Assembly (NCBI GenBank): GCA_027492205.1
Contig: JAOZFN010000006.1
Span: 113,409-177,408, forward strand
DNA from: Thermoproteota archaeon
Lineage (GTDB): Archaea; Korarchaeota; Korarchaeia; Korarchaeales; Korarchaeaceae
DNA length: 64,000 nucleotides
Direction: 5' to 3'
Below, piece by piece: positions 51,566 through 56,132 of this stretch. The notes beneath the pieces are model-generated. The model was not told where the DNA came from, made no database searches, and saw nothing but the letters and a program-made list of their open reading frames with translations. Position numbers and translations under genes: made by a program. Positions within the stretch are counted from its first letter, which is position 1. Each line of letters opens with the position of its first letter.

Positions 51566-51813
51566 ATTCGGCCGAGGGGGCGGCCAAATCTCGACCCGTC
51601 TCGACCGGAGTGCTCCTCAACGTGCCCATCTCGGGGGGAGGGGATAGGGGGGTCCCCCCTATGTCGATACGGTCTCGTTGGAAATCCATTTTGGCAAGAA
51701 AAGACAGTATTTGACCGCTCCGTTCCGGATTTGGCCGAGCCAGGCGCTGTAACATCAAGTTTTTATTGCCCTACTTTGGCGCTTCAACGTGCGGACGACG
51801 GAGGTGATGCCCC

Positions 51814-52200
51814 ATGCCTGAGGCCTTTGAGTTCCACGTGATTGGCGAGCTCAGGGGAGTCGACGAGAGCCTGCTCACCGACGAGGCCTTCGTGAGGGAC
51901 GCGCTGGTCAGGTCGGTGGTGGAGGCTGGCCTGACGCTCTTCGACGTCTACGTCCACCGCAGGGGCGAGGGGGTCATCGGCGTCGCGGTGATAGGCGAGA
52001 GCCACGTGGCGGTCCACACCTGGCCTGAGCACCGCGTCGTGACGGTCGAGGTCTCGTCTTGCAAGGACCCCGAGAGCACTTGGGAGGTCTTCGCCCTTCT
52101 CAGGGAGACGTTCGGAGCCGAGTCCTACAGCGCGGTGGACCTGAGAAGCGGGATAGCCCTCATGGAGAGCCTTAAGGGGGCGGCCGGGGCCACGGCCTGA
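51814..52200 (+). CDS. speH: Pyruvoyl-dependent S-adenosylmethionine (or arginine) decarboxylase proenzyme
   Basis: Intact GESHVAVHTWPE cleavage motif and SSC cysteine. Confidence 0.85.
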   Translation: MPEAFEFHVIGELRGVDESLLTDEAFVRDALVRSVVEAGLTLFDVYVHRRGEGVIGVAVIGESHVAVHTWPEHRVVTVEVSSCKDPESTWEVFALLRETFGAESYSAVDLRSGIALMESLKGAAGATA

Positions 52201-52287: not shown

Positions 52288-53115
52288 TCAGCCCTTTGGG
52301 GAGAACCTGATTATCCCCAAGCCGTTCTGCCTGTGGGCACCCACGCCCACCAGCTCCCCCAGCCTCAGGAGCCTGCTGGCCCAGGTGGACATCTCCTCGT
52401 GCTCCTTCGGGGACCAGTTGGGGTGCATTATGCACTTGTAGTGGGCCCAGCCGACGAACCCAACCACGTTCTCCCCGCTTACCTCTATCGGCCTCGATGT
52501 GCAGAGCTCGTGGCCGGTCTCCACGACGCTCAGCCTAGCCCAGGACACCATGTCCCTGACCCTCGGCCCGTCCTCCCTGAGCCTGTTCCAGCTGCTCGCT
52601 AGGCTGTGGATCAGCATGGAGGGGAGCGGGAAGAGCCTGCAGTACGGCGTCGACTGCCTGCGGAACAGCGTGGGGGTGAGGAAGTTCACCCTGAAGGCCT
52701 TGACCGGCTCGTCGACGCATATCTCCTCCCATCCGAGCCTCTCGGCCTCCACGGAGCTGACCTCGAACTCCATGCCGGATAGCCTAACCCTCGGGCTCCT
52801 GGCCGCCCAGCTCCTGATCAGCGTGGAGGCCGCGTCGCTGAACGTCACCACCCTGGCCCTGTAGGTGGCTCCCCGCGATACGCCCACCGCCCGCTCGCTG
52901 CACTCAACCAGCGGCCGCAAGCCCGTGTACAGGGGAGACGCTATGATCTGACCCCTCGGCCCGGCCATCCTTATGGCCCTCGCCGTCAGCGGGTCGGCGG
53001 ACGACATGACCCTCAGGACGGCCCTCCTCAGCGGCTCCCCGGTGGCGGTCAGCTCTCCGTCCTCGTGGGCCGTGAGCTCCAGAAGGATCGTCCATATCGG
53101 CGGGGGTTGCCCCAA
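52288..53115 (-). CDS. cas6: CRISPR-associated endoribonuclease Cas6 (orphan in this window)
   Basis: FLTPTLFR, P.P..L..SL...WN, GFVG and C-terminal G-loop GVGAHRQNGLG. Confidence 0.85.
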   Translation of the reverse strand: MGQPPPIWTILLELTAHEDGELTATGEPLRRAVLRVMSSADPLTARAIRMAGPRGQIIASPLYTGLRPLVECSERAVGVSRGATYRARVVTFSDAASTLIRSWAARSPRVRLSGMEFEVSSVEAERLGWEEICVDEPVKAFRVNFLTPTLFRRQSTPYCRLFPLPSMLIHSLASSWNRLREDGPRVRDMVSWARLSVVETGHELCTSRPIEVSGENVVGFVGWAHYKCIMHPNWSPKEHEEMSTWASRLLRLGELVGVGAHRQNGLGIIRFSPKG

Positions 53116-53807: not shown

Positions 53808-54899
53808 TCAGCTCACCGACCTCCACCTCAGGCCCAGCCGGTCGGCCTCCTCCCTCGCCCTAACGATCTCCTCCCTGGTGGGGCGGCGGGCTATCTCGGG
53901 GAACCCGTGCGCCCGGTACTCCGGCCTGTACTGATCCATCACGTTCACCAGCGCCCCCGGGGTGTTGTCGGCTATCCACCTGAGTATCGGCACCGTGCAG
54001 CAGTCCACGTGCCTGGGCATGACGAGGTGGCGGACCACCATCTCCGGCCAGTGGTCATACGCCATCCTGATGTTCCTCGTCACGACCTCCCTGTACCTGG
54101 GGGCGGAGCTGTACTTGAGGGCGTGTGAGTCGTCCCAGTACTTGAAGTCCGGCAGCCAGAGGTCTATCACTCCAAGGAGGAGCTCTGTTGCCCTCTCGCT
54201 CATGTACATGTTGGAGTTCCACACGACGGGCACGCTCACCCTGGTCAGCCTCAGCGCCTCGAGTATCCAGGGCAGGTTCGGCGTCGGCTCACCCCCGACG
54301 AGGTTGACGTTCCTCGCGCCCCTCTCCCTCAGGGCCTCGAACAGGGACGCCAGGTAAGGGGCGTCGACGGGCCTGCCGGAATCCGGCTCTTGGGAGATGT
54401 CCCAGTTCTGGCAGAAGACACACCTGAAGTTACAGCCGGAGAAGAAGACCGTCCCCGAGGGGGTTATGGGGGCCTCCTCACCCATGTGGATGAAGGCGGA
54501 GGCCACCCTCGGCGCTCCCCCCACGCCGCAGACCCCGACAAGGCCGGAGAGCCTGTCCACCCCGCAACCCCTCTCGCAGAGCGTGCAGGGGCTCGCCAGC
54601 TCCCTGGCCAGCCTGACCTTCAGGTCGAGGAGGCTGAACTCAGGCCTCTCCGGCAGGGGCGAGCCCGAGTCGACCTCCCTGATCAGGTCCCTGAGTTCCC
54701 CGACGAGGGCCCGGTGCTCCTCCCATGCGCGCTCTCCTGAGAGACCAGAAGGAGCCTTCAGCCTCTTGGCTAGGACGAACTGGGCCTTGACCTCACCCCT
54801 GGCGGCCTTAACGTACCGGGGGAGCGCCTCGAGTATCTCACGGTCGCGAAACGCCATCGCCGCGTCTGGGCGGAGGACCCACCAGCCGGCAACCTCCAA
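53808..54899 (-). CDS. Radical SAM protein, PflX-like
   Basis: CTLCERGC, HMGEE, GCNFRCVFCQN, GGEPTP, WNSNMY, DFKY and RHLVMP motifs. Confidence 0.9.
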   Translation of the reverse strand: MEVAGWWVLRPDAAMAFRDREILEALPRYVKAARGEVKAQFVLAKRLKAPSGLSGERAWEEHRALVGELRDLIREVDSGSPLPERPEFSLLDLKVRLARELASPCTLCERGCGVDRLSGLVGVCGVGGAPRVASAFIHMGEEAPITPSGTVFFSGCNFRCVFCQNWDISQEPDSGRPVDAPYLASLFEALRERGARNVNLVGGEPTPNLPWILEALRLTRVSVPVVWNSNMYMSERATELLLGVIDLWLPDFKYWDDSHALKYSSAPRYREVVTRNIRMAYDHWPEMVVRHLVMPRHVDCCTVPILRWIADNTPGALVNVMDQYRPEYRAHGFPEIARRPTREEIVRAREEADRLGLRWRSVS

Positions 54900-54931
54900 A
54901 CAGACACCCTCTCTCCCTCAGCCGTCCACGC

Positions 54932-55146
54932 GAGAGAAAACCGAGGGGCCGGGGGAGGTTCCCCCCCGGGCGGACGACGGAGGCGACCCCCCGGAGGGCC
55001 GCCGGCGGCCCTCAAAGAGGGCCGTGTCCTGTGCGGGGTGACCCCGCAGAGGAGGGGGCCAATGGTGGGCCCCCTTCACCCCCGAGGGGGCAGCGTGCGC
55101 TAGCCGCCCCTGTGGGGCTGCGGGCCCTGCAGGCCGCCGACGGCCC
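54932..55146 (-). ncRNA. Putative ~210-nt structured non-coding RNA of unknown class
   Basis: TATA box TTTATTA 23 nt upstream; 15-bp closing stem with a U-G pair on this strand; several internal GC hairpins; terminal hairpin plus UUUUCUCUC. Confidence 0.65.
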
Positions 55147-55250
55147 GTGTAATGTAGGGCCGAAGGGGGTAATAAAGGCTCCGGGGGGTCCCCCGCAGTT
55201 GGGTTAATTCTTTTTGCGACCCACGGGTGATGGGCTGAGGGGTCTCGGCG

Positions 55251-56132
55251 TTGGAGCTTGACAGGGTGAGGTTCGGGCCAGCGGGCTTCCCGATAGACGC
55301 CAGCAGGCAGGAGGCCTTCAAGTACCTCAAGAAGATCGGGCTCGACGCGATGGAGTATCAGGCGGTCCGCTCCGTCCCCAAGAAGGAGGAGACCCTGCGC
55401 GCCATCGGGGAGGATGCCGAGGAGCACGGGATTCTGCTGACTCTCCACGCCCCCTACGCCCTGAACCTGTCCGCTGAGGACGAGAAGAAGAGAGAGGGGA
55501 GCATAGAGAGGCTGTTCAGGGCCTGCCGGGCCGCCCACGTCATGGGCGCAAAGCACGTCACCTTCCACCCGGGATACTATGGGGGCCTCGACCCCGCAGA
55601 GGCCTTGGAGAGGACGGTCGACGCCATAGAGCGCGTGATCGCCATGATGAGGGAAGCCGGCTTCGTGGTCGAGCTCGGACCCGAGACCACGGGGAAGCCC
55701 TCTCAGGTGGGCTCCCTGGAGGAGGTCATAGACCTGGCCCAGAGGTTCGACGAGGTCTGGCCCACGGTGGACTTCGCCCACCTCCACGCCAGGGAGGGAG
55801 GCTCGATCAAGGGGAGGGGGGACTACGCCCGGATACTTGACCGCCTGGAGGAGGGCCTGGGGACGCTGGACGGTCTCGTCATCCACTTCTCCGAGATAGA
55901 GATGACCAAGTCGGGCGTCGGGGAGAAGATGCACCACGACCTGGGCTCCGGATACGGGCCGGACTTCGAGCCCCTCGCGCGGGAGATGGCCGAGAGGGGC
56001 GTCAAGTGGGTCGTGATCTGCGAGACCCCCCTCCTCGAGAGGGACGCCTTAAAGATGAAGGAGATCTACGAGAGGGTCTCCGGAGCCCGCCCCCTGGGGC
56101 GAGCGAGAGGCCGGAGACGGAGGCGGCGCTGA
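55251..56132 (+). CDS. nfo: Endonuclease IV (AP endonuclease)
   Basis: RFGPAG, HAPY.LNLS, FHPGYY, PETTGK..QVG, DFAHLHAR, HFS and ICETP motifs. Confidence 0.9.
   Translation: MELDRVRFGPAGFPIDASRQEAFKYLKKIGLDAMEYQAVRSVPKKEETLRAIGEDAEEHGILLTLHAPYALNLSAEDEKKREGSIERLFRACRAAHVMGAKHVTFHPGYYGGLDPAEALERTVDAIERVIAMMREAGFVVELGPETTGKPSQVGSLEEVIDLAQRFDEVWPTVDFAHLHAREGGSIKGRGDYARILDRLEEGLGTLDGLVIHFSEIEMTKSGVGEKMHHDLGSGYGPDFEPLAREMAERGVKWVVICETPLLERDALKMKEIYERVSGARPLGRARGRRRRRR

Follow-up and report, generated by a model that had tools for sequence, protein, structure and literature searches.

A conserved structured RNA upstream of a PflX-like radical SAM gene in one korarchaeal family, with a tail that may pair with the ribosome-binding site of a nearby decarboxylase gene

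We analysed a stretch of 64,000 nucleotides (the window) from a Thermoproteota archaeon of the family Korarchaeaceae (assembly GCA_027492205.1, contig JAOZFN010000006.1, positions 113,409 to 177,408). This work deals with a structured RNA located directly upstream of a PflX-like radical S-adenosylmethionine (SAM) gene, and with the complementarity of its tail to the 5' untranslated region (5'UTR) of a nearby decarboxylase gene of the AdoMet_dc family. Coordinates are window positions, and the RNA is read on the minus strand. The genome to which the window belongs is designated G000 and its genus g1. The RNA region is the 393-nt spacer between two divergent genes. On the plus strand, a xylose-isomerase-like TIM-barrel gene (55251-56132; Pfam AP_endonuc_2, 1.2e-36) is the divergent neighbour in every family locus inspected. 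On the minus strand, the PflX-like radical SAM gene (Pfam Radical_SAM, 3.9e-17) extends, from its Shine-Dalgarno (SD) sequence to the gene end, over 54910-53808. No NCBIfam equivalog was found for this PflX-like protein. Its start is the TTG codon at 54899-54897 and not the first ATG at 54857, as indicated by the codon-wise conservation of LE..WW.LRPDAAM in the genus. The 14 extra codons (54899-54857) are conserved as protein across the genus, and an MWFLRPD start is conserved in other genera. An SD-like AGGGUG (54910-54905) precedes the gene.

On the minus strand, a TATA-like box TTTATTA (55176-55170), with its centre about 27 nt upstream of the first nucleotide of stem P1, is followed after 23 nt by a structured core domain of 151 nt (55146-54996) that is closed by P1. 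The sequence CGGAGCCTTTATTACCCCC at this box is unchanged across four g1 species. P1 comprises 15 bp, one of them U-G, and is formed by a 5' strand GGGCCGUCGGCGGCC (55146-55132) and a 3' strand (55010-54996). An inner stem P2, AGGGCC (55128-55123) with GGCCCU (55023-55018), encloses a multi-hairpin junction. This junction contains a 5' sub-domain (55118-55079) with a conserved GGCUAG motif (55105-55100), the hairpin P4, AGGGGGCC-CACCAUU-GGCCCCCU (55075-55053; loop consensus C-N-N-N-R-U-U), and the hairpin P5, UGCGGGG-UCA-CCCCGCA (55048-55032), followed by a conserved GGAC motif (55029-55026). The 3' strand of P1 is included in a perfect 20-nt palindrome (55013-54994). Further downstream are found the sequence GUCGCCUCCGUCGUCCGC (54987-54970), hereafter the seed, a terminal hairpin CCGGGGG/CCCCCGG (54969-54949) and, 3' of this hairpin, a U-run UUUUCUCUC (54940-54932). 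A first-pass annotation of the window, made from the letters and their open reading frames (ORFs), had described the box, the 15-bp P1, the inner stem, four hairpins, the terminal hairpin and the palindrome, and all of these elements were recovered at the minus-strand positions it gave. All four of its hairpins are present, but the first two (GCCCC-ACA-GGGGC and CCCC-CUCG-GGGG), which make up the 5' sub-domain, can just as well be drawn as a single nested hairpin, the form seen in the minimum free energy structure.

The minimum free energy of the minus strand is -151.7 kcal/mol, versus -131.5 +/- 5.4 kcal/mol for 200 shuffled sequences (z = -3.74). The plus strand folds equally well (z = -3.95), so folding energy cannot choose the strand. 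The RNA was placed on the minus strand because of three other features. Several G-U pairs would be A-C on the other strand, namely in the hairpin GCGGGG/UCCUGC of the g1 species G004 and at the wobbles of P1. Scores of the covariance models described below are 42-129 bits on the minus strand versus 21-39 bits on the opposite strand. The third feature is the conserved TATA-like promoter box, which the first-pass annotation had also proposed together with this orientation. A P1 of 10-18 bp is found in all 32 extracted family sequences, and in all of them an A/T-rich TATA-like box, read by eye, ends 21-27 nt upstream of P1. From this spacing, transcription should start at the first P1 nucleotide.

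Orthologues of the RNA were detected by BLAST in three of the four other g1 genomes, with 97, 88 and 81% identity. A partial match in another genus (L005) falls in coding sequence and was rejected as a chance match. A covariance model built from the four g1 members (R1) gave weak matches of 135-149 nt in two further genera, all of them located between divergent TIM-barrel and radical SAM genes and on the radical SAM strand. This model was too narrow, distant homologues reaching only 18-35 bits. It was replaced by a family-wide model (R2), built after the regions upstream of the orthologous radical SAM gene had been fetched in the remaining genomes; the E-values of both models are rough. With R2, the RNA is present in all five genera (g1 to g5) of one korarchaeal family, with exactly one copy in 33 of the 36 family genomes. 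The three genomes without a match (G002, G044 and G047) are each 70-72% complete. R2 found no copy in the 7 genomes of the rest of the phylum sample, and in two neighbouring families the RNA is absent upstream of the radical SAM orthologue, where only a promoter and an SD are found. Of 99 loci with orthologous radical SAM genes, sampled from many archaeal lineages, 16 match R2 on the forward strand, with 42-129 bits there versus 21-29 bits on the reverse strand, and all of these are korarchaeal; the remaining 83 loci, from other archaea, gave no R2 match. A metagenome scan yielded no additional leader, locus L148 being that of G042.

Covariation was evaluated on a model-based alignment of 34 rows, in whose counts one wrong-strand match (L032, plus strand) is kept. 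Standard pairs are formed in 90.0% of the cells. Changes on both sides are seen for 16 of the 29 pairs, versus 8.2 +/- 1.7 in shuffled alignments (none of 500 reaches 16) and 2-9 in slid controls. For P1 alone, the paired share is 95.4%, with changes on both sides at 6 of 11 pairs. P4 is the most conserved element of the RNA (89.2% paired) and has compensatory stems in g5 (GGGAUC/GAUCCC), in G045 (GGGGUC/GACCCC) and in g2 (ACGGGC/GCCCGU). In P2, an A-U pair is replaced by U-G in G004, the stem reads UGGGCC/GGCCCA in g2, and g3 has only a 3-bp equivalent that competes with a local hairpin. P5 contains two G-U pairs in G004. For the 5' sub-domain, the family alignment accommodates either a local GGGC-UUA-GCCC hairpin or UAGCCC/GGGCUA plus the 3-bp P2, both being 78-97% paired. 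The unpaired motifs GGCUA and GGAC are nearly invariant, and the remaining helices vary from genus to genus. Because of this conservation and covariation in 33 genomes, we consider that the RNA is real and conserved, well beyond chance. The homologue and covariation analysis suggested along with the first-pass annotation has thus returned an RNA conserved in 33 genomes whose P1 and hairpins covary. Literature searches, with supplementary files lying outside their reach, retrieved no description of this RNA, nor of the function of the PflX family.

The RNA belongs to no Rfam family. At gathering score, Rfam 15 returned only two tRNAs for the whole window, both located elsewhere. At E <= 10, the region 54700-55500 gave eight weak matches, the best being PyrR207 (H/ACA) with 19.3 bits versus a gathering score of 60, and the homologous g3 and g2 loci gave tRNAs and noise only. 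This agrees with the earlier suggestion of a new RNA devoid of tRNA, 5S, signal recognition particle (SRP) and RNase P hallmarks. ARAGORN finds no tRNA gene in the RNA, and RNase P RNA (99 bits, contig C12) and 5S rRNA (84 bits, contig C9) are encoded elsewhere in the same genome. SRP RNA coexists with the leader RNA in 20 of 21 g3 genomes and in all four g5 genomes. A multicopy miniature inverted-repeat transposable element (MITE), which had also been considered, does not fit a single-copy element: the RNA has one BLAST match at E <= 0.001 in its own genome and one R2 match per genome. The idea of a diverged known stable RNA (H/ACA guide, SRP, RNase P or tRNA-like) or of a fossil MITE could draw on the weak H/ACA-type Rfam alignments (PyrR207, and GlsR21 with 17 bits), on the fact that SRP RNA was not detected in G000, and on the resemblance of P1 to terminal inverted repeats. 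We regard it as extremely improbable and already largely refuted. In addition to the results just mentioned, neither H/ACA score comes near its gathering threshold (60 and 100 bits), and compensatory changes are seen in P1. The sequences that follow P1 read CACC, CCGC, CCAU, CAUC or UCCG and thus contain no conserved ACA, and no K-turn is conserved at P4, where the UGA...GA flank, compared by eye, varies (UGAA/UCCU in g1, UGUU in G004). Readings of P4 as a K-turn, a T-loop or an anticodon loop were likewise discarded by eye. The RNA is new and specific to one korarchaeal family. As a separate observation, RF01857 did not find SRP RNA in any of the 5 genomes of g1, and the sister genus g4 gave only a 22-bit match. 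For G000, nhmmer --max with a g3/g5 profile and helix-8 regular expressions were also negative. This could reflect extreme divergence or a systematic assembly or binning gap.

In 32 of 33 loci, the RNA has the TATA box on one side and the SD of the radical SAM gene on the other; the 33rd (G022) has a pseudogene. The distance from the end of P1 to the start codon is 12-36 nt in g2, g3 and g5, with only 12-14 nt to the AUG in G008 and G011, and 74-97 nt in g1. A run of at least five T is present in only 1 of 29 linkers family-wide. Since the linkers are short, leave no room for a second promoter and rarely contain T-runs, the RNA and the radical SAM ORF must, from this arrangement, share a transcript, at least by read-through, and the RNA would be its 5' leader. 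The first-pass annotation had suggested a cis-regulatory leader for the radical SAM gene, and the position of the RNA directly upstream, between promoter and SD, agrees with this; the distance of about 35 nt that it gave to the PflX-like gene fits the TTG start at 54899. Conservation does not support its terminator and its switch-like folds. The terminal hairpin is kept in all four g1 species and the U-run in only two of them, and T-runs are as rare as mentioned above. G004 no longer allows the P1 3' strand to pair alternatively with CGGCCCCUC. The 20-nt palindrome, present and perfect here, is specific to g1, g2 and g4 and not family-wide. Together with UUUUCUCUC, the terminal hairpin might act as a weak terminator or attenuator. 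It might also take part in a fold with the SD of the radical SAM gene, beside which a GAGAGA can pair with UCUCUC, as found in a weak mir-149 Rfam alignment and in the fold. Two other features of the spacer are worth noting. A 16-nt block at 55204-55219 (minus strand GCAAAAAGAATTAACC) is unchanged in four genus members and is most likely the TATA box and B recognition element of the TIM-barrel gene (TTAATTCTTTTT on the plus strand), in which case the spacer has two back-to-back promoters. A 339-aa open frame (54918-55937, minus strand) spans the whole RNA, antisense to the TIM-barrel gene. This frame is no gene but a product of the high G+C content, and automatic annotation could hide the RNA under it.

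The seed that follows P1 is complementary to the 5'UTR and SD of the AdoMet_dc-family gene, and 17 of its 18 nt are identical in four g1 species, the single change being C to A in G004. A whole-genome search with the seed and its complement revealed a near-copy at a distance of 3.2 kb on the same strand, which lies antisense to the 5'UTR of the gene at 51814-52200 (plus strand; Pfam PF02675, 1.1e-27). This gene encodes a pyruvoyl decarboxylase of the AdoMet_dc family, that is, a SAM or arginine decarboxylase, and a TATA box TTTTTATT can be read upstream of it (51760-51767, plus strand). The target site GCGGACGACGGAGGUGAU (51791-51808, plus strand), which stops 5 nt short of the AUG, makes up the greater part of the 5'UTR and contains the SD GGAGGUGAU. 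In g1 the duplex between leader (54987-54970) and target (51791-51808) covers 18 contiguous positions, two of them G-U. The decarboxylase gene is syntenic and convergent with the radical SAM gene, at 1.5-3 kb, in g1, g3, g4 and g5; no AdoMet_dc gene was found in the 5 genomes of g2.

The decarboxylase 5' regions from 21 further genomes and G000, 22 altogether, were each compared with the leader tail of the same genome. At least 12 contiguous pairs (12-23), ending 3-16 nt before the AUG, were found in 18 of the 22 genomes. In g4, the seed UCCGCCGUCCGG forms 12 Watson-Crick pairs with the target CCGGACGGCGGA, and two compensatory changes distinguish this duplex from that of g1 (U-A to C-G and C-G to G-C). 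In g3, where the seed begins at the last P1 nucleotides, types A and C combine the seed CACCUCCGCCUCCCU with the target AGGGAGGCGGAGGUG (14-18 pairs), and type B combines CCGCACCUCCACCUCC with GGGGGUGGAGGUGCGG (15-16 pairs). G043 has 23 pairs. Since the genomes are related, genome counts are not independent events, and the independent evidence consists of five distinct seed/target sequence types. When seed and target of different lineages are combined, the runs are mostly 7-10 bp and correspond to the SD/anti-SD core that they have in common. With five lineage representatives at 80 C, none of the 120 permutations gives a summed duplex energy below that of the matched arrangement, and own seed/target pairs have -16 to -24 kcal/mol at this temperature. 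Exact matches to the seed complement are few. In G013, whose genome is complete, a 15-mer is found three times (once self-antisense, once at the target and once within an ORF), and in G006 it is found twice; a 14-mer has two sites each in G001 and G003 (the target and the site antisense to the leader), and a 13-mer has two sites each in G046 and G043. The third exact sites (G013:C1:1347811-1347825, 15 nt, and G024:C6:477478-477490) are inside ORFs, one of them NAD-kinase-like. They are not at a ribosome-binding site (RBS) and not conserved, and were set aside as probably due to chance.

The structure of this RNA, its conservation and its position are observed, as are the complementarity and its co-variation. 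On this basis we find it reasonably probable that the RNA is a dual-function 5' leader and small RNA (sRNA), the tail of which masks the RBS of the AdoMet_dc-family gene in trans by base pairing. The minus strand would be transcribed from its own TATA promoter, starting at the first P1 nucleotide, and the first 150 nt or so fold, as covariation shows, into the P1-closed multi-hairpin domain. The transcript would run on into the PflX-like radical SAM ORF. In g1, an sRNA of about 215 nt may in addition be released through the hairpin and the short U-run. The unpaired stretch 3' of P1 would pair with the decarboxylase 5'UTR and SD and block ribosome access. Repression of a decarboxylase of the SAM or polyamine pathway would then be tied to expression of the radical SAM locus. 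In g3 types A and C, the same CCUCC segment can pair with the SD of the radical SAM gene itself, and binding of the target mRNA could free this SD. The folded core would most likely stabilise and present the seed, or gate it.

Several points weigh against pairing in trans. In the GC-rich G000 genome, one other non-self site outranks the target by duplex energy (-39.3 versus -38.9 kcal/mol for the target); a run-length metric allowing G-U is uninformative there, with 14 sites having 18-nt runs. The pairing is missing in some genomes though the core is conserved, the longest run being 5 bp in G045 and 6-7 bp in G014 and G017, and G008 has only a 10-bp match, which lies inside the core. As the core is kept without pairing in these four genomes and in g2, where no AdoMet_dc gene was found, the antisense role cannot be the only or the ancestral function of the core. 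Part of the complementarity (CACCUCC/GGAGGUG) is expected of any mimic of the 16S rRNA 3' end facing a strong SD. Moreover, we infer the start and end of the transcript, the co-transcription and the pairing in vivo from the genomes, and likewise the direction and sign of the regulation, i.e. which RNA controls which. In both G008 and G011 (g5; L053/L054), the core itself contains a CCUCC-containing sequence, GCCUCCUUCGAG, which lies 3' of P4 and 5' of the P1 3' strand. It can form 10 Watson-Crick pairs with the decarboxylase 5'UTR of G008, UCGAAGGAGG, and the position of the seed with respect to P1 may have shifted in evolution.

Another such point is that the two sites, taken as DNA, are short direct repeats that flank the segment from the radical SAM gene to the decarboxylase gene. 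They could be attachment-site-like or other recombination repeats that bound a radical SAM / kinase / decarboxylase cassette and owe their identity to recombination and not to RNA pairing, the RNA then being an unrelated leader. On one DNA strand, direct repeats of 13-23 bp indeed flank the same gene block in g1, g3 and g4. We consider this explanation very improbable. The block contains no integrase or other mobility gene, and on both flanks the gene order is fixed throughout the family. One of the repeats coincides exactly with an RBS, and the other is located in a transcribed linker that otherwise evolves fast, and the differences between copies inside the paired run are G-U-compatible. The repeats are also presumably too short for gene conversion.

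Evolution of the RNA in G022, a g3 genome, bears on both the trans and the cis role. There the radical SAM gene is a heavily decayed pseudogene and the RNA core still scores 96 bits. The pseudogene (L238, G022:C16:55400-58800, about 600-2270) contains stops, frameshifts and a deletion of about 100 aa, and its CxxxCxxC motif is lost. No TIM-barrel ORF of at least 80 aa and no syntenic AdoMet_dc copy was found in G022, which hints that the radical SAM, TIM-barrel and AdoMet_dc genes were lost together and belong to a common pathway. Compared with G045, its nearest relative, the RNA is identical at 119 of 134 positions without gaps, the pseudogene at 494 of 739 with 325 gap columns, and an intact neighbour gene at 245 of 321. 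The changes were polarised with two outgroups. In this way, 8 lineage-specific changes were assigned to G022 and 0 to G045 in the RNA (134 sites), 26 and 20 in the intact neighbour gene (321 sites), and 126 and 39 in the radical SAM pseudogene (739 sites). Per site, the change on the G022 branch amounts to 6% for the RNA and 17% for the dead ORF, and all stem changes keep pairing. Counting against the proposed dual function, the G022 RNA evolved faster than its sister (8 versus 0 changes) and lost the near-invariant GGAC; its CCCUCC motif is also hit, and its tail has lost the seed. The evidence is mixed, suggesting a core that is still constrained after death of the ORF, though more weakly than in the sister lineage. 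This speaks against a role in cis only and would also fit partial relaxation after gene loss. We dropped G022 as proof of an ORF-independent function, its RNA being slower than the pseudogene but faster than the sister. Concerning gene content, a Cas6-family endoribonuclease gene (52288-53115, minus strand; Pfam CRISPR_Cas6, 3.6e-15) is located between the radical SAM and AdoMet_dc genes of the window, and a similar ORF follows in G022.

The RNA could alternatively be a purely cis-acting leader, either a riboswitch-like aptamer or a protein site, in which P1 near the SD controls translation or read-through and the match with the decarboxylase mRNA is a by-product of an anti-SD element directed at the gene's own SD. 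We hold this to be unlikely. It accounts well for the position between promoter and SD in 32 of 33 loci, for the P1 that ends 12-14 nt from the AUG in G008 and G011, and for the conservation of the core in g2, g5 and G045, where trans pairing is not seen. It would also explain the acceleration in G022 after loss of the ORF, with 8 versus 0 polarised changes and the loss of GGAC; set against this is the slower change of this RNA compared with the dead ORF. At 75 C, 8 of 18 g3 sequences have a predicted 7-bp hairpin in which the CCUCC segment pairs with the SD of the radical SAM gene itself, but no SD-sequestering hairpin is predicted at this temperature in 8 of the 18, nor in g2 and g5. The trans duplexes, of 12-23 bp versus 4-7 bp for the cis hairpins, extend beyond the SD core and show lineage-specific compensatory changes. 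Furthermore, the junction core varies strongly between genera, which is unusual for a ligand pocket.

Within the dual function that we favour, the antisense role does not explain the retention of the core in g2, g5 and G045 without pairing. The folded core could be a sensor, a scaffold, a stabiliser or a protein-binding site. A more specific idea, which we put forward tentatively and judge quite unlikely, is that the P1-closed core is an aptamer for SAM, a SAM by-product or a polyamine, and that ligand-dependent folding determines whether the seed is exposed or not, giving control of the radical SAM gene in cis and of the AdoMet_dc-family decarboxylase in trans. If true, this would be a 'trans-acting riboswitch' of archaea, restricted to one family, by which SAM is divided between radical chemistry and polyamine synthesis. 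To our knowledge, regulatory RNAs of uncultured archaea are almost unknown. The present results describe a new RNA family with a covariation-supported structure and with a specific target backed by co-variation across genera, a kind of evidence rarely available for an archaeal sRNA without experiments. The predicted pairing links a PflX-type radical SAM protein with an AdoMet_dc-family decarboxylase, and provides a hypothesis on the regulation of SAM and polyamine metabolism in hyperthermophiles. Pairing in trans at high temperature may, as a rule, use a long GC-rich seed (12-23 bp).

Among known RNAs, the archaeal H/ACA-box sRNAs share the GC-rich hairpins of hyperthermophiles with the korarchaeal RNA, and the weak PyrR207 alignment extends over 55035-55081. 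The RNA differs from them by its score (19.3 bits versus 60) and by having no conserved ACA box, pseudouridylation pocket or K-turn. SAM-I and similar riboswitch aptamers are P1-closed multi-helix junctions. The likeness to them consists of a 5' end that pairs just upstream of the RBS, junction hairpins, the unpaired GGCUA and GGAC, and a downstream gene that uses SAM. Unlike such aptamers, the RNA has no Rfam riboswitch match at E <= 10, is confined to one family, and has internal helices that come and go between genera. According to the passages of a survey that concern Archaea, known riboswitch classes are very rare in this domain, with one Korarchaeota representative as of 2017 (PMC5473149).

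The closest archaeal precedent, which is not homologous, is sRNA162 of Methanosarcina mazei. It reportedly masks a ribosome-binding site, and is said to be a free-standing methanogen sRNA without a large conserved P1-closed domain or a role as leader of a downstream ORF. The korarchaeal RNA comes from a different phylum, and the case for it rests on cross-species co-variation. The relevant passages of the report on sRNA162 describe an archaeal sRNA that regulates cis- and trans-encoded mRNAs by base pairing (PMC3510493). In mode of action, the closest analogues are SreA and SreB of Listeria monocytogenes, which are not homologous either. In the sections of the source that treat them, these are SAM riboswitch elements that work in trans as well, SreA regulating its operon in cis and the prfA 5'UTR in trans (PMC8079631). 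The korarchaeal RNA has no sequence or structure homology with them and no match to a SAM family of Rfam. It differs further in its archaeal host and in a target encoded in the same locus. SreA is described in these sections as pairing about 80 nt upstream of the SD (PMC8079631), whereas the korarchaeal seed is located directly over the SD. What the two have in common, as far as the same sections go, is a structured 5' leader that, by pairing with the 5'UTR of a distant mRNA, prevents translation of this mRNA, in a setting related to SAM metabolism (PMC8079631), the korarchaeal version being a prediction from the genomes.

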